Below are positions 396 through 62,777 of a stretch of DNA of 64,000 bases, piece by piece (within the stretch, counting starts at the first letter, position 1; each line of letters starts with the position of its first letter). The notes beneath the pieces were generated by a model. The model saw nothing but the letters and a program-made list of their open reading frames with translations, did not search any database and had not been told where the DNA came from. Origin of the DNA: a virus; IMG/VR virus record IMGVR_UViG_3300042554_002903, positions 2,773-66,772 of that record; one strand, 5' to 3'. The translations under genes and the position numbers were made by a program.

Positions 396-962
396 ATGAA
401 CAGAAAACAAATGCAGGATTACATCAGCATGTACAATACGTACCTGTCTGATAACGAACTCATCTCTATAGTGGGTATGATCGCAAGCGAGAAGTTAAGA
501 CGTGACGGTATACACCTATATCAAGGTGTCCCCGCCGGCTTGCGTAATTTTCACCTCAGTACCAAAGAGGGATATGCAGCAGCGATTGATCAACTCGAGG
601 AGCAGTTGGATAAGATGGGCCTCACACTTGATGAGTACGTGCTATACAGCAGGTATTATGGTCTCTTCGACTCCCACTTCTTCCAGGTCACCGAGCCAGG
701 TAAGGCAAGGGTAAGTGAGTACGGAGTGAGGACTACGGTAGACTTCCTTCTGTATCTCGTGACGGGTAAGTCGAATGAGGACATGTATGAGGCCGTCTCG
801 ATTCTGAAGGACCAACCCAAGTGGCCCAAGGATCTGGATGTAATGGGCCTCACTGTCAACTTCTACCAGAACGGTAACGTAAAGATCAAGGGATGGAACG
901 ATGACATGCAGCGCAGATACCTCGAGTTCATGGAGATAAGAAGAAAGGTTAAAGCAGTATGA
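396..962 (+). CDS. hypothetical phage protein
   Basis: 188-aa ORF with A-rich leader; carries two TGGGCCTCAC copies, both encoding MGLT. Confidence 0.7.
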   Translation: MNRKQMQDYISMYNTYLSDNELISIVGMIASEKLRRDGIHLYQGVPAGLRNFHLSTKEGYAAAIDQLEEQLDKMGLTLDEYVLYSRYYGLFDSHFFQVTEPGKARVSEYGVRTTVDFLLYLVTGKSNEDMYEAVSILKDQPKWPKDLDVMGLTVNFYQNGNVKIKGWNDDMQRRYLEFMEIRRKVKAV

Positions 963-1144
963 TAAACCAAAGAGTTACATTCGTCCGCTTCCGTTCTCAG
1001 TTGAGAATGACAGGCGTTATCGTAGAGCAAAAGCACGACAACCATACCGGTCGGCTCTACTACAAGATCAAGGGAGACGATGGCATCTCCTACTTCAGGT
1101 ACCCTAACGAAATAACAACAGATGATAAAGTACGTGTTCAGTAA
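959..1144 (+). CDS. small hypothetical protein (SH3-like beta-barrel candidate)
   Basis: ATGA overlap with the previous gene; TGVIVE...YYKIKGDDG pattern. Confidence 0.55.
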   Translation: MINQRVTFVRFRSQLRMTGVIVEQKHDNHTGRLYYKIKGDDGISYFRYPNEITTDDKVRVQ

Positions 1145-1394
1145 GAAGAGGGATGAGGCCCATCAGTTTGAGACGGTCTCACACCTACCCGATGAGCAAG
1201 TCTTACGAGGCTTGGTACCGGATGGTCACTACTCAGACATTCAAAAGATCATGCATAAAGATGACGGTACCCGCTACTTCTGCTCCAGTCAGGAAGAAGT
1301 AAGGGACACACCTGAGTTGTATGCTGCCATCAATTCCCACCCCTACGGGAAGCTTGCTTTCCATAATGTAACCTTTATACCGCAGGAACTATGA
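1122..1394 (+). CDS. hypothetical protein
   Basis: ORF chained by overlaps on both sides. Confidence 0.55.
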   Translation: MIKYVFSKKRDEAHQFETVSHLPDEQVLRGLVPDGHYSDIQKIMHKDDGTRYFCSSQEEVRDTPELYAAINSHPYGKLAFHNVTFIPQEL

Positions 1395-1672
1395 CACCAC
1401 AGGAAATATTGCACAGCATCTTACTTGATGCTAAGGCAAGGATTAAGGATGGGGAGTTGAGAGATGATTATGGTGGGCTAAGTATTGGGATATGCTCGTT
1501 CTGTCATTATCATAAAAATAGAACAAAACTTTCTCATTTTTTGCTTCTTGAATTGATGGACGAACACAGAGAACTAAAGCAATGGGGAGAGTTTATCGCA
1601 GATGAATACGACTTCACAGACCCCAAACGCCTCGCACTACTCGACTGGCTCATTGAAAGGACTAAGCCATGA
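1391..1672 (+). CDS. hypothetical protein
   Basis: ATGA overlaps at both ends. Confidence 0.6.
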   Translation: MTPQEILHSILLDAKARIKDGELRDDYGGLSIGICSFCHYHKNRTKLSHFLLLELMDEHRELKQWGEFIADEYDFTDPKRLALLDWLIERTKP

Positions 1673-2193
1673 GAGAGATAATATTTCGCGGTAAGCGTGT
1701 AGATAACGGTGAGTGGGTGTATGGGCAGTATGTATTTGCGAATGGTAATTCAAAAATGCTTATTGACAGAACGTCATCAAAACCAAGTGAATGGGTTTAT
1801 GAAGATATTTGTATAAACAACCACTTAATAGTAGTATTCACCCCACCTGACAGACAAGGTTGGGATTACGGAACTCAATTTGACTTTTATAAATGCGACC
1901 CAGACACCATAGGACAGTTCACCGGACTGCTCGACAAGAACGGCACAAAGATTTTTGAGGGGGATATAGTGTTTAATTCAAATAGAACACTGCTTACACT
2001 AAAAGAAGACACAAGAACTTATTTGGTTAGATGGCTCAATGGTAAATACGACAAAGAAAACACTTGGTTGCAAACTAAACCGTCCTTTGAGTTTGAGAAA
2101 ATTAATCCCGATGGTAAAAACTATATGAGCCTAATTTTCAATCAGTCTCAAATCGAAGTCATCGGCAACATACACGAAGGAGGTCATCCATGA
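1669..2193 (+). CDS. YopX-family phage protein
   Basis: MREIIFRGKRVDNGEWVYG ... TIGQFTGLLDKNGTKIFEGDIV ... EVIGNIHE signature. Confidence 0.9.
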   Translation: MREIIFRGKRVDNGEWVYGQYVFANGNSKMLIDRTSSKPSEWVYEDICINNHLIVVFTPPDRQGWDYGTQFDFYKCDPDTIGQFTGLLDKNGTKIFEGDIVFNSNRTLLTLKEDTRTYLVRWLNGKYDKENTWLQTKPSFEFEKINPDGKNYMSLIFNQSQIEVIGNIHEGGHP

Positions 2194-2384
2194 AACAGAT
2201 AACAGATAAAACAAAATTAAAACAAGGTGATATTGACATCTACATCTTGTTGTTGTATATTTGCATCGCGTCTGCCGGTTGTGCTACCCGTGTGATCTCA
2301 CACGACGGACCCATCAAGAAGGTTAAGCACAGAGGTAAGGTGTACACAACCGATTCACCACGAACAATTAAAAGGGATATATGA
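2190..2384 (+). CDS. small hypothetical protein
   Basis: ATGA overlaps; one hydrophobic segment. Confidence 0.45.
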   Translation: MKQITDKTKLKQGDIDIYILLLYICIASAGCATRVISHDGPIKKVKHRGKVYTTDSPRTIKRDI

Positions 2385-2749
2385 ATACTAAACACACACC
2401 GGAACCGTGGATAATTAGCCCTATGGACCCATACTGCGTCACAACACAAGACCAGAATGAAGATATTTGCACAGTATTACTAAAGGAAGACGCAGCCCGC
2501 ATCGTCGCCTGCGTGAACGCCTGTGCAGGGCTTACAGATGAACATCTGTCCAATATTGCACGCGAAATAAATCTCGGCACAGCAGCTATGATGGAACGCG
2601 ACCGGCTGCTTAAGCTGCGCGACGAACTGCTGGCAGCCTTAGAAGAATATCAGCGCATGTATATTACCATTGAGCCAGCCGGTGGATGGCAGGGCGTTTA
2701 CGAGCAGGGAAAAGCCGCCATCACCAAAGCGAAAGGAGGTCAGTCATGA
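2381..2749 (+). CDS. hypothetical phage protein (KHTPxPW...ARIVACVNAC type)
   Basis: Common phage accessory pattern KHTPEPW, DAARIVACVNACAG, AAITKAKG. Confidence 0.7.
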   Translation: MNTKHTPEPWIISPMDPYCVTTQDQNEDICTVLLKEDAARIVACVNACAGLTDEHLSNIAREINLGTAAMMERDRLLKLRDELLAALEEYQRMYITIEPAGGWQGVYEQGKAAITKAKGGQS

Positions 2750-2773
2750 GCAACACAACAAAATAAAACAGGG

Positions 2774-3268
2774 ATGAACAATAAACTGAGAGACATCAAG
2801 GAGATCCGGGGTGACGAGAGCAGGGTGATCGTACCCACTACTATGGTCGTGCACCATCGCCTTCTCGGTCGCAAGATGGACCACCGCTTCGCCGGCTTCA
2901 TCGTCACGGGTCAGAACAAACACGGTGATTACGTCACGCTACCGATCATACCCGAACATCAGAGAGGTGTACCGGCACGCAGGTTGAAATGCCTGGAGAT
3001 GGAAGTCACGTTCTCACCACAGGATGTAGACGGTAAGCACTACGTATGGGGCAGGGCCTTTCCGGAATTAAATTATCCACCGGGATGGGACTACGACCTC
3101 GAGAAATTGGTGATGCCCGATGGGTCTCACATCGAGATCGAGAAGATTAAAGAAGACCGGTACATGTACAGCTACGATTCTCTTCTATTCTACCACAGAA
3201 CTTCGGCACTATTTTATTTGTATGACAAAAAGAAAGCAGTCCAAACCGGAGGAATCGTTTATATCTGA
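2774..3268 (+). CDS. hypothetical protein
   Basis: 164-aa ORF. Confidence 0.6.
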   Translation: MNNKLRDIKEIRGDESRVIVPTTMVVHHRLLGRKMDHRFAGFIVTGQNKHGDYVTLPIIPEHQRGVPARRLKCLEMEVTFSPQDVDGKHYVWGRAFPELNYPPGWDYDLEKLVMPDGSHIEIEKIKEDRYMYSYDSLLFYHRTSALFYLYDKKKAVQTGGIVYI

Positions 3269-6457: not shown

Positions 6458-6651
6458 AAGCGTTCTCACCGGACGAAGAGGAGTTGAGTCAACCCTTGAG
6501 CTTACAAAAAGAGAGGGATCGTCAGCCCATACCCTCACTACCTGATTGGGGATGGCAGCACATGGTCATAACAGCCATGATTTCTTTCGGTGCCCTCTTG
6601 TTTTTGCTACTGGCTTGCCTTATATTTGCACTCTTTTATGTACTCTACTGA
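6442..6651 (+). CDS. small membrane protein
   Basis: C-terminal hydrophobic helix. Confidence 0.5.
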   Translation: MEDRMKAFSPDEEELSQPLSLQKERDRQPIPSLPDWGWQHMVITAMISFGALLFLLLACLIFALFYVLY

Positions 6652-8338
6652 ACTAATTAAACTCGGAATCGACCTCAAAGGTAAATTTAGTGGTAAGTTA
6701 AAAACGACTTGCCCTAAATGTTCCCCGAGTAGGAAGAAAACCAAGGAACCCTGCATGCTTGTGGATATCGACAACGGTATCTACAAGTGTTGGAATAGTC
6801 CTTGTACCTTTAAGGGTACGGTTGCGCATCAGGACGCCTTGAAATATAAGAGACCCAACCCCAACGATAGAGTAGAGGAAGGCAAGCATGAAGGCGTGTT
6901 CTCGTACTTCGAGTCACGTAAGATAGACCGCTCAACTGTGATCTCTTTTGGGGCTCAGATAGGTTACACAAAAAGTATCTTCTTCCCGAACTGTGCACAG
7001 AAGAAACCGGCGGTGTGTTTCAATTATATGCTTGGTGGTGAACACGTCAGGACCAAGTATAAATCCAGGGAGAAAGATTTTACGTCAGACAGCGGAGGTA
7101 TGAACATACCTTTCAATGTTGATAGCTGCATCTACTCGCCTTACGTCATCATCACCGAGGGTGAGGAAGAATGTATGGTCTGGCATCAGTGCGGTAAGAC
7201 AGCCGTTATCTCCGCACCCAACGGAGCCAATGAGAATCTCGAGTGGTTGGATAACGTGTATGAATTACTCGAGGACAAATTGATCTACATCGCAGTGGAT
7301 ATGGATGAGCCCGGTTTGAAATTAAAGAATGCACTGAGTCGGCGCTTCGACCGCGACCGTACCTTTATAATCTCCTTCCCTTTTAAGGACGCCAATGATA
7401 CCCTTAAGGAGAACGGAGAGGAGTACTTGGTACATCTGTTTGATACAGCAACACCGGTACCCATACCTGAGATCGCCGATCTCGATAACCAATTCGCTTT
7501 GGTTCGCTACTACCAGCAGAATGGTTTCCCTTCTGGAGCCAGGACGGGATTACAATACACCGATGACTACATTCAGATCGCTCACCGGGATCTTGTTGCG
7601 CTTGTTGCCACACCGGGAGCAGGTAAGACAACATGGTTGAGGTGGTACATGATGAATCTCGCAGCATATACCGGCTGGAAGTTCGGCATCTTTACCTTTG
7701 AGAATCCGGTTGAGCTATGGATTGCGGAAGCAGTTGAAGTACTCAGCGGTAAATCATTGGACCGATGCAATCAAATGGAGATGGAATCAGCCGAGGCTTT
7801 CATTCGGGCTCACTTCCTGTTCTTTGATATAGCAGTTGACACCGACTACTCCCTATCCTCTATTTTCAATATCAGCAAGAGCATGATCAAGAGGAAAGGG
7901 GTTGACTGTATCGTACTGGACCCATGGAATTATGTCTCAATAGAACAGGGGGAGTCGACTACTGAAAGCATAGGTGAGGCCCTTCGTAATACCAAGAAGT
8001 TCTGCAACCTCAACGATGTCGCAGTCATTGCCGTGGCCCACCCCAGGAAGATGGATAAGGATGGTAATGGTAATTACAAAATACCTACACCCTATGACAT
8101 ACAAGGTAGTAATGCCTGGTTTAACACCCCGGATTTCTGTATCGCGCTGGGTAGGAATTATATGGATGATCACGCACCTGTTGACATGTACGTGCAGAAG
8201 GCTAAGTACAAATTCAGAGGTAAGCTCGGGAGTGTGCAATACACCTTTGACCCCTTGACCTCAAGATACACAGAGCTGGGCCAGAAGGCCGGTGGTAGTA
8301 TGTTAGCGGCATCGGTACAGGAGAGTCTTGCCTTATGA
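6638..8338 (+). CDS. bifunctional DNA primase-helicase (T7 gp4/Twinkle-like)
   Basis: N-terminal Zn finger CPKC..C..C; TOPRIM ITEGEEE and VDMDEPG; Walker A ATPGAGKTT; VLDPWN; VAHPRK; start at 6638 follows TATATTTG at 6621. Confidence 0.92.
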   Translation: MYSTELIKLGIDLKGKFSGKLKTTCPKCSPSRKKTKEPCMLVDIDNGIYKCWNSPCTFKGTVAHQDALKYKRPNPNDRVEEGKHEGVFSYFESRKIDRSTVISFGAQIGYTKSIFFPNCAQKKPAVCFNYMLGGEHVRTKYKSREKDFTSDSGGMNIPFNVDSCIYSPYVIITEGEEECMVWHQCGKTAVISAPNGANENLEWLDNVYELLEDKLIYIAVDMDEPGLKLKNALSRRFDRDRTFIISFPFKDANDTLKENGEEYLVHLFDTATPVPIPEIADLDNQFALVRYYQQNGFPSGARTGLQYTDDYIQIAHRDLVALVATPGAGKTTWLRWYMMNLAAYTGWKFGIFTFENPVELWIAEAVEVLSGKSLDRCNQMEMESAEAFIRAHFLFFDIAVDTDYSLSSIFNISKSMIKRKGVDCIVLDPWNYVSIEQGESTTESIGEALRNTKKFCNLNDVAVIAVAHPRKMDKDGNGNYKIPTPYDIQGSNAWFNTPDFCIALGRNYMDDHAPVDMYVQKAKYKFRGKLGSVQYTFDPLTSRYTELGQKAGGSMLAASVQESLAL

Positions 8339-9856: not shown

Positions 9857-10075
9857 ATGAAGAAGATAGCTATAATAATTGCATTGGGTCTCACATCATG
9901 TGGAATACCCAAGAAACCCTGGGTAGTAACCCAGAAGTATGTAGGTACGGGAGACACATGTGGTCTATCCCTACCTTTTGGAACCGCACTATACGTGTAT
10001 AAAACCAAGAGAGGTAAACAGGTTGAGTTCATTGACCTCTATGATCGTTATGAAATAGGAGATACACTGCGATGA
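9857..10075 (+). CDS. small lipoprotein
   Basis: MKKIAIIIALGLTSC lipobox-type signal. Confidence 0.65.
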   Translation: MKKIAIIIALGLTSCGIPKKPWVVTQKYVGTGDTCGLSLPFGTALYVYKTKRGKQVEFIDLYDRYEIGDTLR

Positions 10076-13485: not shown

Positions 13486-15276
13486 GCGGACCATCTCTTT
13501 GGTTTCGTAGCTCGTCTTGGTATTGGTATCCTTCTTCTGCTTCTCGACGATCTGCTTGTTAAAGATTTCACAACAGATAACGGCATCTACCAAGTCGGTG
13601 TTGTCCACCAGGAATTGTTTACTCTCTTCGATCAGCTCTATGAAATAGATTTCGTCTGAGAAGTTGCGCAGATACTGGAAGAAATATTCGTTACCCCTTT
13701 CACCGGTTGCATCGTTCTTGTAGTAACCGTAGGATTCACTGCCGCTCTTTTTAAAATCACGGGTGAGCAGAGATGGTTTCTTAGCCAGCAGATCCAGCCG
13801 GCCGGCGCTCTTATACTTATCGTATATCACACCGCCCCTGTTTATCTCAAGCATGGCCGGCGCTTTGTTATACCAGTCCTGTAGAGCTATGCTCTGGTTA
13901 ACTATATTAACGGGGTCATCATCTCTGTCCATGTAGAACGCGACATAACGCTGCAGGTCCAGATCTTTGATAGCTATACAGTTTTTAGAACCGGTTGCCA
14001 GCTCCTTACTTATGAAAGGGATGGGGTCTATACCGGCTATATAGGTATGACCTGGGATGGGACGGTGTAAAATGTGTACCAATCCTTCCTTATCTGGTCG
14101 GAATATGGGAGACCCATCGGCGTCGCGGTCCATTCTTCCACGTTCACGTGGTAATTTTTGGGAGACAATCACTCTCTCCCTGGCTTGTATCTTCTGTTTG
14201 ATATCCTCGGGAAGAGAACCCTTGGGATTAGCACTCACGACTTCCTGTACGGTCAGCGGATATTGCTTAACAAATACGTCAAGATAACTTTTATCTTCCA
14301 GGCGGTCCAACTTCTCTCTGGTCTTCTCAATCCATTCGGTCGCGGCTTTCTTATCGCTGTGACCATTGGGACAGAAGTTCAGTATTTTACCTGTAGGTTT
14401 ACCCTTACTATCGAGTTCAGGTGCTTCCATCACGCCTTTCCAACCCGGGATGAATACACATATAATACCTAAGTCCTCGGCATTCTCCCACAATTTAGTA
14501 CCGACACGCTGTCCTTCCATGCTTGACTCACCGGCACTACCACCGAGTACGATAGGTGCGAGCTTACGGAAACCAGCTTTAACACTGGCCTGAGCAGAAC
14601 GCAATACCCTATCTGCTTTGGGGTGCAGGAAGAATTCATCTATGAAGATATGCATGGCACGATACGCCTCGAATGCTGTGGGTTGATCCACTGTCTCCTT
14701 GGTTATGATCTGGGAATCCTTACCGGAATAAGATCCATCAGGATTCTTCTTACCTAAGTGCAGATAACCAGTCTGTCTGTCTGCAATATTTGAGGGTCGG
14801 TAATCCGGATTTAAATTATCATAGATGGGACGCAGCTTATCCTTGAACATAGCCTCGAGCCTGGGTTTATCAGCAGAGGTCATCAGAGATGTACTGCCTT
14901 CCATTGTCAATGCCGTACACATAGGTATTATACCACCGAAGACAGCGGATAAACCTATCTCACGACGTTTAAATATAAGCATGTCCAGGGATTTATCCTT
15001 AGCGTACTCATAGGAGCCGTATATATCTTCTTCGTCCACGTCACGCCATACCGGTCTTATCTTCTTACCGGTAGCATGTTTCATGTGGGCTTGAGTAAGT
15101 GCGAAGTAGTGAGGCCCAACCAATCCGAATCGACCAGTGCGCCAGTAATCCTCTTCTTGTTTCCACCACTTTTTCTTTTCTTCCTTGGTGGCGTTCTCAG
15201 ACAACAGATATTTAGCAGCCCAGTCTTCGTAAACGAATTTGGGAGCTCTGTCCTTTTTACTTTTAAGAATCTCCAA
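13414..15276 (-). CDS. terminase large subunit
   Basis: ATPase motifs FKRREIGLS and IFIDEFF; nuclease motifs YIAGIDPI, MLEINRG, DLVDA; 620 aa. Confidence 0.88.
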   Translation of the reverse strand: MEILKSKKDRAPKFVYEDWAAKYLLSENATKEEKKKWWKQEEDYWRTGRFGLVGPHYFALTQAHMKHATGKKIRPVWRDVDEEDIYGSYEYAKDKSLDMLIFKRREIGLSAVFGGIIPMCTALTMEGSTSLMTSADKPRLEAMFKDKLRPIYDNLNPDYRPSNIADRQTGYLHLGKKNPDGSYSGKDSQIITKETVDQPTAFEAYRAMHIFIDEFFLHPKADRVLRSAQASVKAGFRKLAPIVLGGSAGESSMEGQRVGTKLWENAEDLGIICVFIPGWKGVMEAPELDSKGKPTGKILNFCPNGHSDKKAATEWIEKTREKLDRLEDKSYLDVFVKQYPLTVQEVVSANPKGSLPEDIKQKIQARERVIVSQKLPRERGRMDRDADGSPIFRPDKEGLVHILHRPIPGHTYIAGIDPIPFISKELATGSKNCIAIKDLDLQRYVAFYMDRDDDPVNIVNQSIALQDWYNKAPAMLEINRGGVIYDKYKSAGRLDLLAKKPSLLTRDFKKSGSESYGYYKNDATGERGNEYFFQYLRNFSDEIYFIELIEESKQFLVDNTDLVDAVICCEIFNKQIVEKQKKDTNTKTSYETKEMVRLEFRNGRYVRIVERIVVHKPDSV

Positions 15277-17841: not shown

Positions 17842-18996
17842 CTATTTAAACTCGTTTTGCAAATCAGGGAAGAATTGCAGGTCGCTCCGGTAGGCTTCGA
17901 TACCGTATTTTTTTATCAGCATACGTAACGTGAAGGATGCCGTTGACATATCACCAGTATAGTAGTCGATAAGGTAACTCCACTCCATCACTACCTTATC
18001 TGAATACAGAGAACGCTGGTTCATGTAGAAGTCCCGGTATTTGACCGAATTAAGAGCCGCAAGAATGGGTTCCATATCCTGCCACTTGTTCTGTTCCCTC
18101 ATTACTTCGAGTACACGAAGCCATGTCTCCCTTCTATTAGGTGCGGCGTTGACTGCAAGGAAAGCATGTGCAAGCCTGTATCTCGGAATCTGTATTATTT
18201 TTGATAATAAGATAAGGCTCTCAGATACTTCCATGTCCCAGGCTTCCGGTTGGTCTACGTGCTGCTCAAGTACAGCACGAGCGGCGTGGTTGTATCCGCT
18301 GTAGTACAACTCACGACCGAGGTAATACAGCGTGCGGGTATCGCACTCACTATTCACGTAATCCCGGAGCATACCTGTGAGGTAATTACTCCTGTCGGTC
18401 TCGTGATTCTGACCGTGCTCCAGTAGGACAGCATCTATCGTATGGGTTTGGGTCTCACACTCCGATACCAGTGCTTCATGTACTGTACCCTTCCATCTGA
18501 ACTTGTGCTTGTTATAGAATTTATGATGACGGAATTGTAGGTTGGGAGACCCATCATCATTCCTGGCGTATACAAATTCGTACTCAATCCTGTCCACACC
18601 GCCTGCGATTATTCTATTCAACTCGTCAATACAGAACTCCGTGGTAACGAATTCATCACAGTCCGGCATGAATACAAAAGGTTCCCGGACGTACTCATCA
18701 ACAATGTAATTACGAGCAGCAGCGAAATCAAAATAGGTCTGGCCTTCTTTGAGTATGTGGTCACCGAGTACATTATTACAAACCTCTTCCTCTCTTTCTG
18801 TTATTGTTTTCCGGAAGGATGTGTTCTCGACAACATGGGTAGCACCGGCTTTAAACGCTGCACCTACTGTATCATCTGTTGAACCCGTATCGAGTACGTA
18901 TATGTTTCCGGTAAAGCCTTGGTTGCGTAAGGACTTGATTAAACGAGGTAGAGTCTTCTCCTCATTGCGTGCGATTACTGCGACTGCAAAATTCAT
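17842..18996 (-). CDS. GT2 glycosyltransferase with TPR-like C-terminus
   Basis: IARNEEKTL, VLDTGSTDDT, DFAAARN, DCDE, WKGTVHE, YYLGREL. Confidence 0.9.
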   Translation of the reverse strand: MNFAVAVIARNEEKTLPRLIKSLRNQGFTGNIYVLDTGSTDDTVGAAFKAGATHVVENTSFRKTITEREEEVCNNVLGDHILKEGQTYFDFAAARNYIVDEYVREPFVFMPDCDEFVTTEFCIDELNRIIAGGVDRIEYEFVYARNDDGSPNLQFRHHKFYNKHKFRWKGTVHEALVSECETQTHTIDAVLLEHGQNHETDRSNYLTGMLRDYVNSECDTRTLYYLGRELYYSGYNHAARAVLEQHVDQPEAWDMEVSESLILLSKIIQIPRYRLAHAFLAVNAAPNRRETWLRVLEVMREQNKWQDMEPILAALNSVKYRDFYMNQRSLYSDKVVMEWSYLIDYYTGDMSTASFTLRMLIKKYGIEAYRSDLQFFPDLQNEFK

Positions 18997-44509: not shown

Positions 44510-46672
44510 TTACATCTCCAAATCAGGCTCCTGCTGCTCCTGGCCTTGGGGCGGCATCTGGCTGGCGACTTCCACTTCTTTTCGATAGTTTGCGCCTTCC
44601 TGCCTTAATTGTTCCGGAGCCACACTTGCCTGGAGTTGAGCTTCTTGCTGCATCTGCATCATCTGCATTTGCATCTGTTGCTGCTTCTCTGCATCCCTTA
44701 CACGTTTGCGCACGGCATACATTAATTCTGCTCTGAGTTCTGTGAAGGTTCTGCATTGCTCTATATTTAAGTAGTCTTCGAATGTAATGGCCTGGTTCTG
44801 AGCAAATGCTTGTGCCATGTTCAGTAACCTTTCTCTTGCCTGTTCGTCGATGAAGTCGCGTATCTTTATATACGTACCGATCTCTTCGAACTGGAAGTCC
44901 TTCATTATTTTCAGGTAGCGTATACCATCAGTACCTACTACCGGTATGTCGTTCTCGTCTTCTGAAATGGCTCCGAGTTTATATTGGTTGAGGGCGTGCC
45001 TTAACTGGTGCTCTATGAAACCTACGAATCCCTGGTAGAGTGAGGCCGTTCCGAGATTGGACTGAGCAATTGTGCCGGCCTGTGTTTTCGCACCGACATA
45101 TCCGCTCTGTTGACCGAGTGCGATCTTGGGTATGTTCACGATCTCTTCCATCAGTCTCTCTTCTTCCCGGCGCAGCGCAATTAACTGCTGTACGTTTGGA
45201 TCGAGAGTCATGTCAACGACGTCAACCAATCTTTTATACTTGCTGTCGTCATCCTCGCCGCTGGCTGAGTTAATCGTGCTTATACCCCAGAGTTCAAAAT
45301 CCTTAAGTATAGATGAAGGTGTCTTACCGCCGGCCTTGTCTTCGTTGAATACGAAGTTCTTACCCTTGGCCTTATTGACCATCTTGGTGATCTCGTTGGT
45401 GAAGTAGTCGATCCTGTCCTGGTGGATATGCAGACGTGATACAACCGAGCGGTTATCGCCGCCGATCATGTTCGGTACGAATACCTTAATAGGTAGTTCA
45501 ACCTCACCTGGATTGTCATGCTTACGAACTATGTTCGTGTCCTCACCGTAGTTGACCAGATATTTATCTCCGATCAGCGTGCCTTTATATACGGTCTTTA
45601 CCCAGTACTCGCCGGCTTTATTCTTCTTGCGAATCTTGGCGTAGTGTGTATTACCGTACTTATCATTTACCTTTTCCATGCGTAGGTCTTTCATACCTAC
45701 CCAGTATACTTCAGCAGCAGCCATCAGTGGCATACCTTGGTATGTTTTGTACCAGTGAGCTGAATAAGGTACATTGGTGAGACCCAACCGATCCATCGAT
45801 CCCGATCCGGTCATATTTTTCAACTCAGCTATTTCTTCCATTGAGAGTTGATGACCATGTTGTTCCATGATATCGGAAGGCGTCATCCACTTAACTTCCC
45901 CTACGAAACGGGCCTCACTGTTGAAATCATTATCTTTCGCGTTATCCCAGATCAGAGCCCAGGGTTCAACAACCGAGAAATACTCCCGGCCATTTTCCAT
46001 TCTGTTTTTAATACCGGCTTTACCGGTAATGAGAGCATAGTGCAGGGCGAGCTTGTACTTCTGACGGGCCTCATTACGAAGTAGGATATCCTCACACATA
46101 CGCTGCGCAATAATATCACCCTTCTCTTTATAGTCATACATCATGAAGCGCTCGATATCCTGCTCGCTTTCAAACTCGTCTTCCTGTCCACCCATGGGTG
46201 AGAATTCAATACCATAAGAAGACATATCGGCAAATAGCTCGGCGGCTTGTTTCTTAAGCAGCAGCTTCTCGAGCATGGTAGTCTTACGATTCACCGCAGC
46301 TTTACTATTCAACCGGACCGATGGTTCGATATTATCTACCATCTTGACTCCGGTACCCAGCATGAAGTCAATCAAGCCGGTCACCTTCTGTCCGGATATC
46401 CACACCGTAGGTAGAGGGTCGCATCCGTCTGCTGTCTGAGTTGTGTAGTAGTAATCCCGGTTACTCTGCTTACCCATATAGTAAGAGACCATGCGGATCA
46501 TTTCATCGACCGGAGTTTCGTATGCGTTTTGTGAGTTACCTTGATTCTGAGGACGGGCGTCAAGCAATGTACGTTTCGCATTGTAGTGCGAGTATACAAA
46601 GCGGACGTTCTCCTTGTACCAGTCGATGCCTTTCGCTGTGTCAAACTGGGACGGTTGAGTGTGTACTGCCAT
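44510..46672 (-). CDS. portal protein
   Basis: 720 aa; first gene of the head module; Gln/Met-rich C-terminal barrel. Confidence 0.82.
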   Translation of the reverse strand: MAVHTQPSQFDTAKGIDWYKENVRFVYSHYNAKRTLLDARPQNQGNSQNAYETPVDEMIRMVSYYMGKQSNRDYYYTTQTADGCDPLPTVWISGQKVTGLIDFMLGTGVKMVDNIEPSVRLNSKAAVNRKTTMLEKLLLKKQAAELFADMSSYGIEFSPMGGQEDEFESEQDIERFMMYDYKEKGDIIAQRMCEDILLRNEARQKYKLALHYALITGKAGIKNRMENGREYFSVVEPWALIWDNAKDNDFNSEARFVGEVKWMTPSDIMEQHGHQLSMEEIAELKNMTGSGSMDRLGLTNVPYSAHWYKTYQGMPLMAAAEVYWVGMKDLRMEKVNDKYGNTHYAKIRKKNKAGEYWVKTVYKGTLIGDKYLVNYGEDTNIVRKHDNPGEVELPIKVFVPNMIGGDNRSVVSRLHIHQDRIDYFTNEITKMVNKAKGKNFVFNEDKAGGKTPSSILKDFELWGISTINSASGEDDDSKYKRLVDVVDMTLDPNVQQLIALRREEERLMEEIVNIPKIALGQQSGYVGAKTQAGTIAQSNLGTASLYQGFVGFIEHQLRHALNQYKLGAISEDENDIPVVGTDGIRYLKIMKDFQFEEIGTYIKIRDFIDEQARERLLNMAQAFAQNQAITFEDYLNIEQCRTFTELRAELMYAVRKRVRDAEKQQQMQMQMMQMQQEAQLQASVAPEQLRQEGANYRKEVEVASQMPPQGQEQQEPDLEM

Positions 46673-46678: not shown

Positions 46679-46709
46679 CAAAGTTAGCGAAAAAATAAGT
46701 GAGGCCCAA
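46679..46709 (-). promoter_or_regulatory. portal promoter with its -33 element inside the repeated motif
   Basis: Minus strand reads TTGGGCCTCAC-N12-TAACTTTG-TAGGAA-ATG. Confidence 0.7.
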
Positions 46710-47394: not shown

Positions 47395-47425
47395 TTGACT
47401 TCTGTTGGGTCTCACATTACCTTTG
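47395..47425 (+). promoter_or_regulatory. sigma-70 promoter with the motif in its spacer
   Basis: TTGACT 47395, TGGGTCTCAC 47406, TACCTTTG 47418. Confidence 0.85.
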
Positions 47426-48312: not shown

Positions 48313-48724
48313 ATCTTAATTTCTTTAGCAATTCATTGGGTCTCACATCATCTCTCAACTCCAAATCCCTGAACATTATATCCTCAACACTCACCCCATA
48401 GAACTCAGAAGCTATTATAGCTATCTTAGTCGAGAACATAAATGTTTCGCTATCGGTAAGGAAGTCACGGACACCGACATCAATCGTGATACCCATGTGT
48501 TCGATTATATTATCGCAGGTCATCTGCCGGCCCATCACCAATTTGAGATGGTGCAGATTCTTACGTACCCTCTGGCTTATTGTTCTGAGCTGCTCTTTAA
48601 CATTCTCGTTAAAGTATAATCTTTTCGCATTTGATATCCTGGCCTTACGTACAGGTATGGACGGCTCCTTCTTTTTTATTTCGCTGATCTCTGCCAGCAG
48701 TATGTCTTCTCGTGATAACGCCAT
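48302..48724 (-). CDS. XRE/Cro-like HTH transcription regulator
   Basis: VRKNLHHLK...IIEHMGI...IASEFYGVSVEDIMFRDL resembles the XRE C-terminal signature; transcribed from a divergent promoter. Confidence 0.55.
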   Translation of the reverse strand: MALSREDILLAEISEIKKKEPSIPVRKARISNAKRLYFNENVKEQLRTISQRVRKNLHHLKLVMGRQMTCDNIIEHMGITIDVGVRDFLTDSETFMFSTKIAIIASEFYGVSVEDIMFRDLELRDDVRPNELLKKLRYDS

Positions 48725-48742: not shown

Positions 48743-48793
48743 CAAAGTTAAATAAAAAATGCTTGACTTTCATTCGGTCTCACTTTATCTTTG
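48743..48793. promoter_or_regulatory. back-to-back promoters with an operator-like motif
   Basis: Leftward TAACTTTG (48750-48743); rightward TTGACT 48763, CGGTCTCAC 48775, TATCTTTG 48786. Confidence 0.8.
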
Positions 48794-53721: not shown

Positions 53722-53943
53722 ATGGAAATACTAATAACCTTTTTCTTCGGCCTTGCCGTTTTATACTACATCAGCCTGAAGATTGATAACAAGATGGACC
53801 AAATGATTGGGCCTCACATCCCATACTTCCGTCTATATCCCAGACTAAAGAGGAAGATGTTACAGGAGATAGGTTTCTATCTTGCCGTTGCGTTCATCCT
53901 GGGTTCAACCATAACACACATTGGGTATGTTATTGCCAGATAA
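53722..53943 (+). CDS. two-TM membrane protein
   Basis: Hydrophobic ends. Confidence 0.6.
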   Translation: MEILITFFFGLAVLYYISLKIDNKMDQMIGPHIPYFRLYPRLKRKMLQEIGFYLAVAFILGSTITHIGYVIAR

Positions 53944-54445: not shown

Positions 54446-54476
54446 TTGACTTTCATTCGGTCTCACACTATCTTTG
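54446..54476 (+). promoter_or_regulatory. sigma-70 promoter with the motif in its spacer
   Basis: TTGACT 54446, CGGTCTCAC 54458, TATCTTTG 54469, ATG 54482. Confidence 0.85.
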
Positions 54477-54871: not shown

Positions 54872-54898
54872 CTTTTTTTGGGTCTCACATTATCTTTG
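54868..54898 (+). promoter_or_regulatory. sigma-70 promoter with the motif in its spacer
   Basis: TTGACT 54868, TGGGTCTCAC 54879, TATCTTTG 54891, ATG 54904. Confidence 0.85.
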
Positions 54899-54903
54899 CA
54901 ACT

Positions 54904-55146: not shown

Positions 55147-55547
55147 ACAAGTGGGTTAATTTGTACGTGAGCGTAAAAGGAGAGGTGAAGCAAGGCGGAG
55201 CTTTCTTTGAAAGCAAAGAGGCTGCGCAGTCAAATGCTACTGACCATATCGGTCCTTCGGATGGGCCTCACTTCTACCACTCAACTATTGATGTCAAACT
55301 ACATGTCCGTAGTCATGATCTCAAGATAGCGCCTGCTTATTTCGCAGCAGTAAGTAGTGGTGAGAAAACTTTTGAAGTCCGTAAGAATGACAGAGGTTTC
55401 CGTCTCGGTGATGTTCTTGTCCTGAGAGAGTACGAAGAGAAAGGTTACACCGGTAGCGTAGTGTACAGAAAAGTTGGATACATCCTTCCCGGCGGACAGC
55501 ACGGCATCGATCCCGAGTACGTCGTCCTGGGTTTGAAGGAGTTGTAG
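55143..55547 (+). CDS. ASCH/DUF3850 domain protein
   Basis: HDLKIAPAYFAAVSSGEKTFEVRKNDRGFRLGDVLVLREY...YVVLGL. Confidence 0.88.
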   Translation: MNKWVNLYVSVKGEVKQGGAFFESKEAAQSNATDHIGPSDGPHFYHSTIDVKLHVRSHDLKIAPAYFAAVSSGEKTFEVRKNDRGFRLGDVLVLREYEEKGYTGSVVYRKVGYILPGGQHGIDPEYVVLGLKEL

Positions 55548-56388: not shown

Positions 56389-56421
56389 CGATCCCAAATG
56401 GGTCTCACTTTAAAAAACAAG

Positions 56422-56859
56422 ATGATAAGAAAAGAGATACATACCAGAAGTGATTGGGCAGCTAACGAAGTCAAGCTCTGGAATCAAGTATTGGAGCAAG
56501 CATTGAAGTCCGGTAGTCTTGCCGGATACAGAACACGCAGAGCGATTCAGAAATTGAATCAGGCCCTGCGGATATACGACCATTATGTCGCGGAGTTCGG
56601 TAAGGCAGTCCGTGCTATGAGGGGAGAATGTCCAGTTAATGATGTAAAAAACTGGACATCGGATGGGTCTCACACCGTGCTGCACATTACTCTTCGGGAA
56701 TACTGCGACAGTTGTGCTGATGACTGCTGTACTGATTATGGTACAGAAGTTAGGGTGAATGGAGAGGCGTTGGAGTGTAATAATCAAGATACCGCCACCA
56801 TACTTCAAAAAGTGCTGGAGCATCTGGGCTACGATGCCGTGGTCGAGGACATCTTTTAA
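56422..56859 (+). CDS. hypothetical protein
   Basis: Start re-called at ATG 56422, downstream of the RNA; CDSCADDCC. Confidence 0.6.
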   Translation: MIRKEIHTRSDWAANEVKLWNQVLEQALKSGSLAGYRTRRAIQKLNQALRIYDHYVAEFGKAVRAMRGECPVNDVKNWTSDGSHTVLHITLREYCDSCADDCCTDYGTEVRVNGEALECNNQDTATILQKVLEHLGYDAVVEDIF

Positions 56860-56893
56860 TATCGAATGGGTCTCACATAAATTAACATAATAA

Positions 56894-57130: not shown

Positions 57131-57190
57131 TATCGGTTGGGTCTCACATCAAGTCTTGCAACAGCAGGACTTTTTTTGTATCTTTACATC

Positions 57191-57735: not shown

Positions 57736-58013
57736 TGGGCCTCACTTTCATTAAACCAAGCCACGACCTGATCAAGACTGATGCCCTCAACAGTAAGAGA
57801 GCGCAGAGAGGATGGACTCACTTCAATCACCACCCTACGAGAAGCATCTCCATGAACAGAGTAAGCCAGTACAAAGGACTGCGTCCGTACCCACACACCT
57901 CTGACCAGATTATTGGAAACGGTCTCAATCCTTTGACCACCGGATCTGGCAATAATAGCGTTCTGCTCCTTGATCACATAGGAGACCACGTCTTCGATGT
58001 TTGAAAATTTCAT
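57732..58013 (-). CDS. hypothetical protein
   Basis: 93-aa ORF. Confidence 0.55.
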   Translation of the reverse strand: MKFSNIEDVVSYVIKEQNAIIARSGGQRIETVSNNLVRGVWVRTQSFVLAYSVHGDASRRVVIEVSPSSLRSLTVEGISLDQVVAWFNESEAQ

Positions 58014-58410: not shown

Positions 58411-58441
58411 TATGCAAAGATAAGAGCTTGCGCCCCATAAG

Positions 58442-58681
58442 TCAAGCTTTTTCTTCAGTTTCTTCCGGGCTTTGGATGGGCCTCACACTAAGGAGAACCG
58501 TACCTATCTCAGTAGCTGTAACTCGAGTAGACGCTATACGCTCAAGAAGAGACATAATAGCGTGGTAATGCTTCCAGCGATAGAAGTTAAAAGGGCTTAC
58601 ACCCAGTGTTTCCGCCACTTTCTTCGCGGTGTATCCCAGGGAGTAGAGGTGGGGGTACTCCTTTTTGCTTTTAATACGCAT
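58442..58681 (-). CDS. small HTH protein
   Basis: GYTAKKVAETLGVSPFNFYRWK classic HTH; TATATTTG just upstream of the ATG. Confidence 0.7.
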   Translation of the reverse strand: MRIKSKKEYPHLYSLGYTAKKVAETLGVSPFNFYRWKHYHAIMSLLERIASTRVTATEIGTVLLSVRPIQSPEETEEKA

Positions 58682-59519: not shown

Positions 59520-60137
59520 ATGAAAAATTCAAACATTCAAAAGGCGCAAAATGAGACAGCGCAAAAGTCTCAATCCATTTCGCTGATGGTATTAATCGAC
59601 TGTGAAACCAATCATGAAACTAAAGAAGTTGCGCAATTCGTAGCTATTGCCAATACTACTGAAACGGTGAATCAGCAAGCGGGCAAAATCTTTACCGCTG
59701 CAAGAGTAGCGGCACGCAATGCCATTCAATCCGGTTATAAAGTCAAGGAACTGAAAAAGGTAAAAGATAGTGAAGACAGTCAAGTAATTGCGCGCAAAGT
59801 CCGCGAATCAGATTTTCGCATCACCATTGCACTGAATTACAGTACCGATGATGAGCAAATTTTGGGTAAAATTGTATCTTTGCCCTTTGCATTCACGGAC
59901 GGGCAAAAGGTGCGGAAATCGGCTATTGACTTTATCAATGCTCTTTTATCGGCTCCCATTGACAGGGCGCACGATGAATTAATTGAATCTTCTCTATTCA
60001 CTGACAACCTGAAAGTAAAAGAAGTTCCGACGGTAACAAAGGACGGTAAGCAAACGGTTCGCAAAGTGGCGGACGTGCCTCAATTGGCTGACTTCCGTCG
60101 CTTCCTTGACTCTCCTTTGTCAATTGCGCTGAATTAA
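59520..60137 (+). CDS. hypothetical protein (first gene of the rightward early-type block)
   Basis: 205-aa ORF with an A-rich leader. Confidence 0.7.
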   Translation: MKNSNIQKAQNETAQKSQSISLMVLIDCETNHETKEVAQFVAIANTTETVNQQAGKIFTAARVAARNAIQSGYKVKELKKVKDSEDSQVIARKVRESDFRITIALNYSTDDEQILGKIVSLPFAFTDGQKVRKSAIDFINALLSAPIDRAHDELIESSLFTDNLKVKEVPTVTKDGKQTVRKVADVPQLADFRRFLDSPLSIALN

Positions 60138-60688
60138 GGCGCGACGGTGCAACGTGCTGAAATAAGGCACTGACTGCGAAAGTATTGCACCGTGCAAAAT
60201 TAGAGTATTTATACTCTTGTTTTACGTTCTTTACAAATACCGTTTCAGAGTGCCTGAATTAAGTTTCACGGGCAAAGAATGCACAAGGCTACAAGGTTTT
60301 AATATCTGCAAAGTGAGTTAAAGTGTAACGGTTAAGGTAATGCCATTCTATTAATGCCATTGTAAGGAGTAAGAAAGACCGTGTGACGGGGTCTGAATCA
60401 GCGATTCGCAAACCGTAATTTATTAAAGAGTCTTATATAAGTCAGGTTGATGAAATTAGGACAGGCGAATTAAAATAGAACGCTAAAGGCATAACGGCAC
60501 TGCAATACCCCGTAATAATGACAGCACGTTGAATAGGCTAACTTTTATGCCTGATTCAGTCAGCCGTCCGCCCTTAATTCATGTGACAGGGCAGCGCAAA
60601 ATAAGATATAAATAAGCGCAATAAAAGCAAAAGGAGCTTTTAAAAATGTAAACAAAAAAATAAGAGTCTATATTATACCATTACATTT

Positions 60689-60720
60689 GGGGGCTGGCTT
60701 TAATTAGTCAGTCCCTTTTT
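60689..60720 (+). terminator. intrinsic terminator
   Basis: GGGGCTGGCT...AGTCAGTCCC followed by TTTTT. Confidence 0.75.
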
Positions 60721-60924
60721 GTGTGGTATCTCTACTACTCATGTGAACCATACATGAGGTGCAATATATGTGAGACCCATCGCAAAAGTTAAAACGTGTA
60801 TGCGTTTACTTTGCGCCCGTCTCATAGGTTGTGCAGGTTTGCCCGTTATGCTTGACACCATTGCGGACGGTTTCAATTGCCGTGCAGCCACTACGCCCAT
60901 CACTCAAATGTGGTGGGCTTTTTT

Positions 60925-61113
60925 ATGCAGAAAAATATAACAATCGAGATTCCAGAAAGTGTGGATATCTCACACATGGTGCAAGTCATTGCTTTTGCTT
61001 GTCTATACTCAGATCATGTTACACCTGACGAGTATGAAGTTCTTTGTGACATACTTAAACAATTAACTGATGAGCCTGTGGAAATACCTAATGCTATGTT
61101 TGAAAATAAGTGA
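60925..61113 (+). CDS. hypothetical protein
   Basis: MQKNITIEIPES...; its stop is the TGA of the motif. Confidence 0.6.
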   Translation: MQKNITIEIPESVDISHMVQVIAFACLYSDHVTPDEYEVLCDILKQLTDEPVEIPNAMFENK

Positions 61114-61119
61114 GACCCA

Positions 61120-61311
61120 ATGCGATTAATAAAATTAACCAATGACGGCCCAGATAAAACATGTAATGTATGGGTCAATCCTGCTGAAATTGTGTGGATT
61201 CGTAAACATTCTGAATCCGTTACTCTTTTGTGTATGACCTTTGGACTTAAGGTCTATGTTCAGGAGACTCCAGAAGAGGTGTGTGCTTTAATAAGCTTTA
61301 ATAATAAGTGA
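61120..61311 (+). CDS. FlbD-like small phage protein
   Basis: MRLIKLT...VWVNPAEIVWI...VQETPEEV; both ends lie in motif junctions. Confidence 0.65.
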   Translation: MRLIKLTNDGPDKTCNVWVNPAEIVWIRKHSESVTLLCMTFGLKVYVQETPEEVCALISFNNK

Positions 61312-61317
61312 GACCCA

Positions 61318-61497
61318 ATGCAAGTAGTAAATATAACCGTAAACGTACCCGAAGGTACGGACATGGACCACATGTTTGAAGCCGTGTGGGGTGCCATGTG
61401 TCTGAGTACTAAGGTAACACAACAAGAGACGGACTTCGTACTGAGTCTGATTACTAAAGTGGATGCAGAACTAAAGTTAAATAAAAATCCGAAATGA
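61318..61497 (+). CDS. 59-aa hypothetical protein (not in ORF track)
   Basis: MQVVNITVNVPEGTDMDHM...; starts at the motif ATG; resembles 60925-61113. Confidence 0.6.
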   Translation: MQVVNITVNVPEGTDMDHMFEAVWGAMCLSTKVTQQETDFVLSLITKVDAELKLNKNPK

Positions 61498-61718: not shown

Positions 61719-61813
61719 AAATCTTTAACGCCATCGGTAACGCACTGGGAGTAGTGTGTGCCGTCTTGTTTATCCTCATAGCTTTACGTATCCTATGGGG
61801 TTTATTAATGTGA
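61715..61813 (+). CDS. 32-aa membrane peptide (not in ORF track)
   Basis: MKIFNAIGNALGVVCAVLFILIALRILWGLLM; stop in the motif. Confidence 0.5.
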   Translation: MKIFNAIGNALGVVCAVLFILIALRILWGLLM

Positions 61814-61830
61814 GACCCAATGTAAAACGC

Positions 61831-62172
61831 ATGTATAACAAAGAAAATTTAATCAGTTTCCTGTCAGCCAAGGCTGCACAGAAGAACGTGGACATCAATG
61901 ATGTACCAGGTTGGGTGTATGACGCAGTAATTGCGTATCTCGGTTGGTTAGAACCGCTTACTAACTTATCCAAAGTTGTGAGTAATGACCCGTGCGAACT
62001 ACCATTTATACTTGAATGGTTGGAAAATACAGACTTTGATGACGGTTCTGGAAGTTTACCTGCGCATGGTACTACATTCACTACCAAAGACGGTAATGAA
62101 ATCGAGATAGTAATGTGGGAACCCCATGTGTACTGGGAGCTTAACCAATTGGTTGAAGAAGTTTATAATTAA
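61831..62172 (+). CDS. hypothetical protein
   Basis: Start re-called at MYNKENL. Confidence 0.6.
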   Translation: MYNKENLISFLSAKAAQKNVDINDVPGWVYDAVIAYLGWLEPLTNLSKVVSNDPCELPFILEWLENTDFDDGSGSLPAHGTTFTTKDGNEIEIVMWEPHVYWELNQLVEEVYN

Positions 62173-62177
62173 ACAAT

Positions 62178-62387
62178 ATGATAACAATAATTTCAATCGT
62201 AGTGATATGCATCATATTGGTGGTGTCCTACTTTCTTGCTGTTCTCGTTTGCGGAGAACCTCTCTATGACGGACTTGAATACATCATTGGTTATATTCTG
62301 TTAGGTCTACTCTTATTTTGCCTGTTTGGTATTCTTTTCTGGGCTTGCTTCATGTTTGTACGTGAAGTATTAGTTACTTTAATGTGA
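62178..62387 (+). CDS. two-TM membrane protein
   Basis: Hydrophobic; stop in the motif. Confidence 0.6.
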   Translation: MITIISIVVICIILVVSYFLAVLVCGEPLYDGLEYIIGYILLGLLLFCLFGILFWACFMFVREVLVTLM

Positions 62388-62393
62388 GACCCA

Positions 62394-62771
62394 ATGGAAA
62401 ATTTATTAACTGAAACTCTGTCTGAGCTTTTACGCCGCAATAAAAAGGAAAGTGATATCAGGTGGGTGGGAACTCGTTCTCATAAAATCACATGGGAAAA
62501 CTTTAAAGAGTGTGCCGATATCGAATACGATGAGTCATCATCAATACAAGAGGTAGCCTATGACCTTGTCATTGTTGGTGATGGATGGTGGTTAGAGAGG
62601 TACGAGTGGGATAATTACGGCTCAGAGGCATGGCGATTTGTCAAAGTACCTGTAGAACCAGATGAGACACTACATGTGGACTCCCTGACAAGAGACCAAG
62701 CAGTAAGATTAGGGCGTGACCTCTCTTATTTTGAAAGTCATGACTTAGAAGCGTTAAATGGTATTAAGTGA
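62394..62771 (+). CDS. hypothetical phage protein
   Basis: NLLTET...DIRWVG...DLVIVGDGWWLER; both ends lie in motif junctions. Confidence 0.7.
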   Translation: MENLLTETLSELLRRNKKESDIRWVGTRSHKITWENFKECADIEYDESSSIQEVAYDLVIVGDGWWLERYEWDNYGSEAWRFVKVPVEPDETLHVDSLTRDQAVRLGRDLSYFESHDLEALNGIK

Positions 62772-62777
62772 GACCCA

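Follow-up and report, generated by a model that had tools for sequence, protein, structure and literature searches.

The question raised by this stretch of DNA is why one asymmetric 10-mer, GTGAGRCCCA, recurs along it in both orientations, and what might read it. The stretch analysed (hereafter the window, 64,000 nucleotides) corresponds to bases 2773-66772 of the 66,772-bp IMG/VR record IMGVR_UViG_3300042554_002903, a lake-water phage with a CheckV completeness of 98%. Coordinates are window positions unless preceded by L002, which denotes the record, and G-numbers designate complete genomes (n = 12, counting the present phage), with the exception of G008, a metagenome-assembled genome. The 64-kb window contains 31 exact matches to the word (+ strand, 15; - strand, 16); every site of GTGAGRCCCA and of its reverse complement TGGGYCTCAC given in the initial annotation was recovered, with none in addition. 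In 100 dinucleotide-preserving shuffles of the window, the word was found 0.24 times on average, which reproduces the expectation of about 0.24 first put forward, and 2 times at most; its frequency is about 140 times that of chance. The whole record holds 34 copies, 17 per strand, and no copy of the reversed word used as a control. The most enriched 10-mer is GTGAGACCCA, with 22 copies in the window against 0.09 expected and 24 in the whole record against 0.10. When one mismatch was allowed, 69 matches were obtained in the window (6.46 expected, shuffle maximum 15); the near-matches noticed earlier at 27, 163, 1153, 3701, 8830, 48775 and 54458 belong to this list, but the one at 1174 carries two mismatches.

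The carrier is a crAss-like phage, as had been proposed: its 1399-aa muzzle protein (33938-38137, - strand) matches PF25731 (4e-31, 108 bits for a cut-off of 27), and 38628-39275 encodes the crAss tail ring protein 2 (PF25702, 42 bits for a cut-off of 27).

Form of the word and selection on DNA

The tolerance of the word was read from the 38 one-mismatch copies. Positions 3, 4, 7 and 8 are changed in none of them and position 5 in a single one, while changes fall on position 1 in 5 copies, position 2 in 13 (mostly GGGAGACCCA), position 6 in 6 (mostly to C), position 9 in 6 and position 10 in 7. Since the core positions are spared, GAG-R-CC is considered as the fixed core, at whose middle position A, G and C are all tolerated; this pattern would suit two contact patches of one protein. 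The flanks are W on the 5' side and W-Y-S on the 3' side, and the full form is W-GTGAGRCCCA-W in the present phage and T-CTGAGRCCC-A/C in its relatives. Of the 31 copies in the window, 10 are followed by an ATG, and one more such case is found among the two copies located upstream of it; six of these ATGs are real start codons according to the gene maps.

The initial annotation had described the word as a signal in nucleic acid rather than in protein and had proposed a codon-preserving shuffle as the null. This shuffle was performed on the called genes (500 runs), and the enrichment persists: the reverse complement is present 16 times on the coding strand against a mean of 1.17 and a maximum of 4, and the forward word 4 times against a mean of 0.46. 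The same procedure applied to five relatives, using for each its own variant of the word, gave 3-12 observed copies against 0.16-0.36. Gene-opposite copies (9-letter form) are distributed over the three reading frames as 13, 8 and 1. Because the excess survives the codon shuffle and the copies use two reading frames, the signal acts on nucleic acid, and the early description stands. The excess is real and is no by-product of protein sequence.

Relatives and the one-letter switch

Relatives were collected by an alignment-based portal scan, which yielded 76 IMG/VR loci (1.1 Mb) with 48-57% portal identity, and one contig of a metagenome-assembled genome (MAG). CTGAGRCCC is found 239 times in the 76 loci, at least three times in 42 of them, and the same 9-mer with G, A or T as first letter only 8, 16 and 15 times, respectively. 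The letter before TGAGRCC is C at 71% of such sites in the relatives and G at 69% in the present phage. Among complete genomes, CTGAGRCCC is present 17 times in G003, 16 in G004, 11 in G005, 14 in G006, 18 in G007 and 13 in G012 (reversed controls 0-2), against 3 in G009, 2 in G010, 2 in G011, 3 in G013 and 1 in G001. Seven of the 12 complete genomes, counting the present phage, are therefore motif-rich and five are nearly without the word. It had been asked at the outset whether related phages share the word: the family does share the core, in the C-variant, but five of its 12 complete genomes have almost none. The motif-rich G012 is close to the motif-poor genomes (portal 70-74% identical, probable major capsid protein 83-87%), which indicates that the word was gained or lost quickly. 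A 16-mer scan of viral contigs for closer relatives returned one unrelated 139-kb contig with a single copy, and a scan of metagenomes returned two loci of 49-50% identity with 0-1 copies. CAAAGGTT, found in G001, G009 and locus L080, was considered as a second genome-wide word and rejected, being mostly a coding repeat in one gene.

Comparison of homologous sites indicates how the word is written. The conserved portal peptide S-E-A-R is encoded as TCT GAG GCC C, which produces CTGAGGCCC, in 16 of the 22 portal genes having the peptide; in the present phage alone it is encoded as AGT GAG GCC C, which produces its own word, GTGAGGCCC. At the word sites of G012 that can be aligned with close motif-poor relatives, the same or similar residues are often encoded by other codons, for example GGG TCT CAG in G012 and G006 versus GGA AGT CAA in G009. 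It is synonymous codon choice that makes the word.

Two further observations concern the relatives. GACCC/GGGTC is present 1-2 times in G010 and G011 (loci L115-L122) against 26-32 expected, and in G013 (L127-L130) GGGTC is depleted on the coding strand only (7 against 20.7); a host enzyme reading GACCC/GGGTC may be involved, since this 5-mer forms part of the word. In a Sphingomonadaceae MAG (G008), contigs C18, C22, C40, C41, C44, C45, C50 and C88 are small and rich in TGAGACCCA, and resemble fragments of related phages binned together with it.

Placement, orientation plan and genomic setting

Placement was determined for the 34 copies of the record against a curated gene list. Twenty-two copies are inside genes (17 on the strand opposite to the gene and 5 on the gene strand) and 12 are at junctions or intergenic (5 opposite and 7 on the gene strand); with 88% of the genome coding and 12% non-coding, the latter class is about threefold enriched. 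Twelve of the 34 copies are found within 45 nt upstream of a start codon. Taken together, gene-opposite copies outnumber those on the gene strand by 22 to 12 (binomial p = 0.12).

Polarity runs by four blocks and not uniformly with transcription. From 60770 through the contig end to record base 1171 the word is on the + strand among small + genes, hence on the gene strand; through the replication genes, which are + genes, it is on the - strand, i.e. opposite; through the structural genes, which are - genes, it is on the + strand with a single exception at 18449; and from 47406 to 58477 it is on the - strand. The stretches on either side of the long non-coding region at 58.7-60.9 kb are mirror images in orientation and hold the greatest density of copies, 19 within 9 kb. 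The same layout was recognised by reading the maps of G003, G004, G005, G006, G007 and G012, copies being few in G005 and G006: gene-strand copies of the relatives cluster in the small-gene block just downstream of long non-coding gaps, and among the replication and structural genes the copies have the opposite orientation. A single orientation plan is common to the family.

Two placements are especially regular. At 61110, 61308, 62384 and 62768 the word is the entire junction between two genes, its internal TGA ending one gene and an ATG starting the next. In the promoters at 47395, 48763, 54446 and 54868, (T/C)GGTCTCAC occupies one and the same register, its end 2 nt upstream of the TAnnTTTG box, and in the portal promoter the word comes just after the TTG. 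The promoters of the first four are alike, possibly as copies of a single cassette. In the relatives, six intergenic gene-strand copies follow a -10-like hexamer (TGTAAT, TACAAT, AGTAAT, TATGTT, TAAGGCT); after them come an A/C-rich leader and then an ATG, the distance being 18-42 nt in five cases and 242 nt in the sixth, G004 49972. The sole copy kept by the motif-poor G001 is of this intergenic gene-strand type after a -10-like hexamer.

The individual copies of the window are as follows. In the replication block, GTGAGGCCCA at 616..625 and a further copy at 844..853 (both - strand) are inside the + gene 396-962, and 3121..3130 (-) is inside the + gene 2774-3268, all on the opposite strand; 9885..9894 (-), also opposite, is between the open reading frames (ORFs) 9596-9850 and 10072-10506, within a weak automatic call (9857-10075). 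In the structural block, opposite copies on the + strand are found at 15109..15118 inside the - gene 13414-15276, at 26398..26407 and 27748..27757 inside a giant - gene (23892-31595), at 35423..35432, 36479..36488, 37226..37235 and 37968..37977 inside the muzzle-protein gene, and at 45777..45786 inside the portal gene (44510-46672, -), an alignment position where, among 72 portal genes, only the present phage has the word. The exception of this late block, 18449..18458 (-), is on the gene strand inside a - glycosyltransferase gene (17842-18996). The portal promoter copy (46699..46708, +) is 26 nt before the portal start, the - strand reading TTG-GGCCTCAC...TAACTTTG.

In the block on the - strand, the copy at 47406..47415 occupies the spacer of the + promoter 47395 (TTGAC..TGGGTCTCAC-AT-TACCTTTG), and the same register is held by the one-mismatch copy GTGAGACCGA at 48774..48783 (-) in the + promoter 48763, by GTGAGACCGA again at 54457..54466 (-) in the + promoter 54446, and by the exact copy at 54879..54888 (-) in the + promoter 54868. 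The copy at 48337..48346 (-) is on the gene strand at the 3' end of the - ORF 48302-48724, 24 nt before the start of the RusA gene (47938-48312, -). Opposite copies on the - strand are inside the + ORF 53701-53943 (53808..53817), inside the + ASCH/DUF3850 gene 55143-55547 (55262..55271), 13 nt before the ATG at 56422 of a + gene (56399..56408) and inside that gene, 56422-56859 (56664..56673). Two - strand copies are between + genes, 56867..56876 at 17 nt before the ATG at 56894 and 57138..57147 at 43 nt before the ATG at 57191. The copy at 57736..57745 (-) is on the gene strand at the end of the - ORF 57732-58013 and abuts the ATG of the - ORF 57568-57735; that at 58477..58486 (-) is on the gene strand inside a - helix-turn-helix (HTH) gene (58442-58744).

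On the + strand, 60770..60779 lies where the long non-coding stretch ends, ahead of the first small + gene. The junction copy 61110..61119 provides with its own TGA the stop of ORF 60877-61113 and is followed at once by the ATG at 61120; 61308..61317 contains the stop of 61120-61311, the next ATG being at 61318; 62384..62393 contains that of 62178-62387 (next ATG 62394); and 62768..62777 contains that of 62394-62771 (next ATG 62778). Between them, 61810..61819 is on the gene strand 11 nt before the ATG at 61831, a likely start. In this region the small genes 60925-61113 and 61318-61497 look paralogous, each followed or preceded by a stop-word-start junction, which suggests duplication or cassette exchange at the word.

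Other features of the genome were recorded around these copies. PHROGs matches include the portal, a family-A DNA polymerase and a T7 gp4-like primase-helicase, and further family matches were obtained for a RecE/YqaJ exonuclease, RusA, a 230-aa serine-recombinase-like protein, a DnaA-domain-IV protein and an amidase. The conserved 620-aa protein of 13414-15276 (-) has no family match and is, by its position, the probable large terminase; a 2567-aa protein has no Pfam match. The portal has no match in GenBank phages, and its 202 homologues in a large protein collection are nearly all about 51-57% identical, P0002 being 68% identical. About 20 promoters of the form TTG-N17-22-TAnnTTTG were found in the phage; as this is what we take to be the Bacteroidota promoter consensus, the phage probably infects Bacteroidota. 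The serine-recombinase-like protein (3798-4490, about 230 aa) consists of a catalytic domain and half of a 'Recombinase' domain; it belongs to the core, being encoded by all 12 complete genomes, and is about 230 aa long in each of the seven measured. It is the only recombinase found, and nothing else in the family suggests lysogeny. Conserved small core proteins are also encoded at 50622-51257 and 51257-51514. The non-coding stretches 58745-59519 and 60138-60876 flank a single gene (59520-60137) in the early-looking region and have no Rfam match; they recall the two highly transcribed intergenic regions described for phi14:2 (bioRxiv 10.1101/2020.03.07.982082).

Upstream of the window, two facing copies of the word form an intergenic 9-bp inverted repeat with a 7-nt loop at L002:483-506 (TGGGTCTCA...TGAGACCCA), and genes for a SprT-like metallopeptidase and a DUF7178 protein are found at L002:1429-2507, where the word switches strand. 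At the other end (63700-64000), an 18-bp tandem coding repeat, GGTAATGCAC x11 (peptide GNA(R/Q)V(S/W)...), runs into the contig end and probably caused the assembly break there. The only tRNA detected by ARAGORN, tRNA-Cys(GCA) at 55698-55770, lies downstream of the ASCH/DUF3850 protein and of another protein that weakly matches the anticodon-binding domain of CysS. CTAG is absent from the phage against 183 expected under a Markov model, AGGCCT and CGAACG are absent and CAGCTG is present twice; the absence or near-absence of these words is strong restriction-site avoidance, and the avoided set differs in each relative.

Possible readers and functions of the word

The explanation that we tentatively favour is that a phage DNA-binding protein recognises the word and would thereby occlude promoters and block RNA polymerase in one direction, in the manner of stoperators. 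A DNA-binding protein acting on transcription is preferred because the placements in promoters and at junctions are the most specific functional clues, and a block to one direction of polymerase travel because the orientation plan splits the early-looking block from the rest. From this layout we infer a sequence-specific, most likely phage-encoded protein that would read an asymmetric site of about 10-12 bp. At a promoter, the bound protein would deny RNA polymerase access; at junctions and within genes, it would be an obstacle to polymerases arriving from one side only. As a result, early genes could be shut off and antisense or read-through transcription between converging modules stopped, or, the reverse, middle and late genes could be silenced.

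The system that this recalls is that of the Cluster A stoperators (L5 gp71, TipsytheTRex repressor), the L5-type repressor being described as having more than 20 asymmetric sites in promoters and short intergenic spaces and as repressing in an orientation-dependent manner (PMC9283540). Both kinds of site are asymmetric, of about 10-13 bp, present in dozens per genome (here in part at promoters and short junctions), oriented according to genome organisation and found in lineage-specific variants. Unlike stoperators, the present word is two thirds intragenic and is opposite to transcription except in the early-looking block; Cluster A phages are temperate and have a monomeric immunity repressor, whereas here, in a crAss-like phage that probably infects Bacteroidota, none was found among the scanned proteins, no sign of lysogeny was seen and the core is conserved much more deeply. 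The likeness to stoperators drawn in the initial annotation agrees with the one-register word in four promoters and with the 12 of 34 copies at junctions or promoters; the 22 intragenic copies, the mixed orientation and the result of the repressor search do not support it.

Several observations weigh against such a binding site. Most copies are intragenic (22 of 34), 17 of these being opposite to the gene, and the 22 opposite copies versus 12 do not make orientation uniform with transcription (p = 0.12). The 8-letter core is kept across lineages at about 50% portal identity, and operator-repressor pairs usually change faster than this core. The four promoters may be copies of one another, and junctions could be the cheapest place to write a word needed for another purpose; none of 11 strict TTGAC-N18-TAnnTTTG promoters of the relatives holds the word. 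In gene-content comparisons made from three reference genomes, no gene was found to be present in all 7 motif-rich genomes and in none of the 5 motif-poor ones, and no repressor family was detected by Pfam and PHROGs in the 64 distinct proteins scanned (a subset of the gene set).

The same scan bears on the candidate readers. Forty-three of the 64 proteins have no match to a Pfam or PHROGs family. Three HTH candidates had been named at first. The one at 4866 (DnaA_C, 4866-5381) is not supported, as every one of the 12 complete genomes encodes it with its signature residues unchanged, the five without the word among them; DnaA boxes are not enriched (23 against 19 expected). That at 48302 has no family match, and that at 58442 has a borderline match to HTH_Tnp_1. 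No HU/IHF family match was obtained, and no HNH or GIY-YIG nickase was found among the 64 proteins, whose only nuclease matches are RusA and the RecE/YqaJ-like exonuclease. In the primase-helicase of the present phage alone, the second zinc knuckle is CWNSPC in place of CHHC, a single event that proves nothing.

Other explanations were weighed against a transcription-blocking protein. It is unlikely, in our judgement, that the word marks the start of lagging-strand primers, a T7-type primase-helicase reading on the single-stranded DNA template 5'-W-TGGGYC-TCAC-3', with the C after Y as cryptic base and pppRCCC(A) as primer. Under this explanation, a candidate reader would be the gp4-like primase-helicase at 6590..8338 (+ strand; phrog_239 1.7e-76; PDB 5ikn/6n7i 5e-13; N-terminal zinc ribbon CPKC...CWNSPC). 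Such an enzyme, of the same family as that of T7, is encoded by the present phage and by all 11 compared complete genomes, and its zinc ribbon is visible in the present phage and in the 7 relatives whose called gene kept the N-terminus. The reverse complement of the word contains GGGTC, a T7 site 5'-(G/T)2GTC-3', although this fit was spotted after the fact. In the case of primases, the first nucleotide is dictated by the middle base of the trinucleotide, its 3' base being cryptic (PMC5737085); in the word, the position where the primer would begin is precisely the degenerate R. Polarity in three of the four blocks, where the reverse complement is mostly on the coding strand, is as expected if forks follow transcription, but two origins, or else head-on replication of the early block, would then be required. 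The binding of T7 primase to its site is dependent on a further 10 nt or so on the 3' side, and some 26 strong sites about 1-6 kb apart have been proposed (PMC12839067); the number and mean spacing of the word are of the same order, yet 19 copies are packed into 9 kb at intervals of about 200-600 bp and intervals of up to 7.9 kb are found elsewhere, and T7 sites are a loose feature set and not one hyper-abundant 10-mer. The template strand reads GGGTC in 24 of the 34 copies but GGGCC in the other 10, and five further near-copies have a middle C. The present phage pairs its G-for-C change, 4 nt 3' of the cryptic base, with the altered zinc knuckle, a weak point since the event is single; and the word is absent from sister phages with a very similar primase. 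It does not follow the primase, since the motif-poor G001 and G013 have a zinc-ribbon region 66-70% identical to that of the motif-rich G012, with the same ribbon motif. Were priming the function, a primer pppACCC/pppGCCC should be made on TGGGTCTCAC and TGGGCCTCAC, and not on TGGGTCTCAG. Decidedly unlikely is a role as mark of site-specific single-strand nicks in packaged DNA, as in T5, tf and Rembedalsseter-like phages. In Pseudomonas phage Rembedalsseter, 13 copies of WACTRTGAC lie on one strand, each at a strand break, and 60 related phages with little nucleotide similarity are enriched in this word, in and outside genes and mostly on the coding strand (PMC11780129). The nick-associated words known from that source (tf/Rembedalsseter-like, T5 and phiKMV-like phages) are asymmetric 9-10-mers with a central purine, family-wide and in about 10-30 copies. 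The likeness is evident, the present word being an asymmetric 9-10-mer with a central R, in 11-34 copies, in a divergent family and with its reverse complement mostly on the coding strand. Their words, however, lie on one strand with demonstrated breaks, whereas the present one, known from sequence alone, is on both strands and changes strand in four blocks, and neither type of nickase was found among the 64 scanned proteins.

Readers of host origin, a different RNA polymerase and RNA itself were considered in the same way. A Chi-like signal imposed by the host and taming a RecBCD/AddAB-type nuclease, or another host-read word, which phages of this host would accumulate in the polarity that shields ends and broken forks, is improbable. 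It would account for the sharp differences among close relatives (13 copies in G012 versus 1-3 in G001, G009 and G013 at 72-74% portal identity), and a shared host fits G012 and G006, since these have three accessory genes 50-92% identical and the same ...CCCC form of the word; the densest copies on both sides of the long non-coding region, in mirror orientation, are what protection of two DNA ends needs, and marks of host-specific restriction avoidance are strong in these phages. Chi, HIP1 and DUS/USS are over-represented short words under selection on DNA, Chi being asymmetric and polar and HIP1 a palindrome. These, unlike the present word of phage genomes, belong to cellular chromosomes and are read by host machinery; known Chi sites are of 5-8 nt and the Chi of E. 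coli is sparser than one per 2 kb, which also counts against this explanation. Moreover, all 12 genomes encode their own RecE/YqaJ-type exonuclease, and in the Sphingomonadaceae MAG, the sole cellular assembly found with a relative, TGAGRCCCA occurs about once per 70 kb on large contigs (in total 73 copies versus 11 of the reversed word in 3.4 Mb), many of the matches being on small phage-like contigs; the relative itself is probably mis-binned, as its GC is 0.39. That the word is an RNA start element, used by an RNA polymerase that is modified or not of host origin, with transcripts initiated at R, early genes driven by gene-strand copies and antisense RNAs made from opposite ones, is very improbable. 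Eight of the 12 gene-strand copies are 0-24 nt before start codons, and those of the relatives come right after -10-like hexamers, with R about 6 nt downstream. Against this, host-type promoters at 58415, 58685 and 60682 serve the early-looking blocks, intragenic copies have no common upstream element, 22 antisense promoters would be purposeless, and a motif search (with no fold search) of ORFs longer than 800 aa in 7 genomes gave no convincing virion RNA polymerase motif D[FYLIVM]DxD, i.e. no DFDxD-type catalytic motif. On the favourable side, in phi14:2 the virion polymerase transcribes single-stranded DNA, and the early transcripts are reported to share no upstream motif (bioRxiv 10.1101/2020.03.07.982082). 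An action in RNA can scarcely be credited: GUGAGACCCAAUG at early mRNA junctions would be a processing, translational-coupling or repressor site, perhaps paired with UGGGYCUCAC of middle and late mRNAs. At the four junctions (57736 being a near-equivalent) the stop is inside the word and the next start directly after it, and the two orientations yield complementary RNAs; but the promoter-spacer copies are upstream of any transcript start, copies of the relatives are at starts in either orientation, and Rfam gave no match. The initiator and RNA-level explanations account only for the subset of copies at gene starts.

A full-text literature search with four forms of the word returned no phage paper among the matches listed. 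What is new is this word, its family-wide polarity in four blocks, the one-letter switch between lineages and the existence of sister genomes without it. These features could belong together as a strand-polar code of a freshwater crAss-like family, a possibility about which we remain doubtful: a word written through synonymous codons, with an orientation splitting the early block from the rest, would be read by a conserved, unrecognised protein directing polymerase traffic (transcription or self-specific priming), whose specificity would have moved from C to G with the genome rewritten accordingly.

Phages of the crAss-like group are among the most abundant viruses, and to our knowledge little is known of their gene timing and DNA copying. 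The word provides an easily scored cis-signal, conserved across a family with a fixed orientation plan, together with a natural G/C switch of specificity and natural relatives that have lost it. This switch makes the question directly testable by probes one letter apart (GTGAGACCCA versus CTGAGACCCA), and such words could serve as lineage or host markers for uncultured phages.

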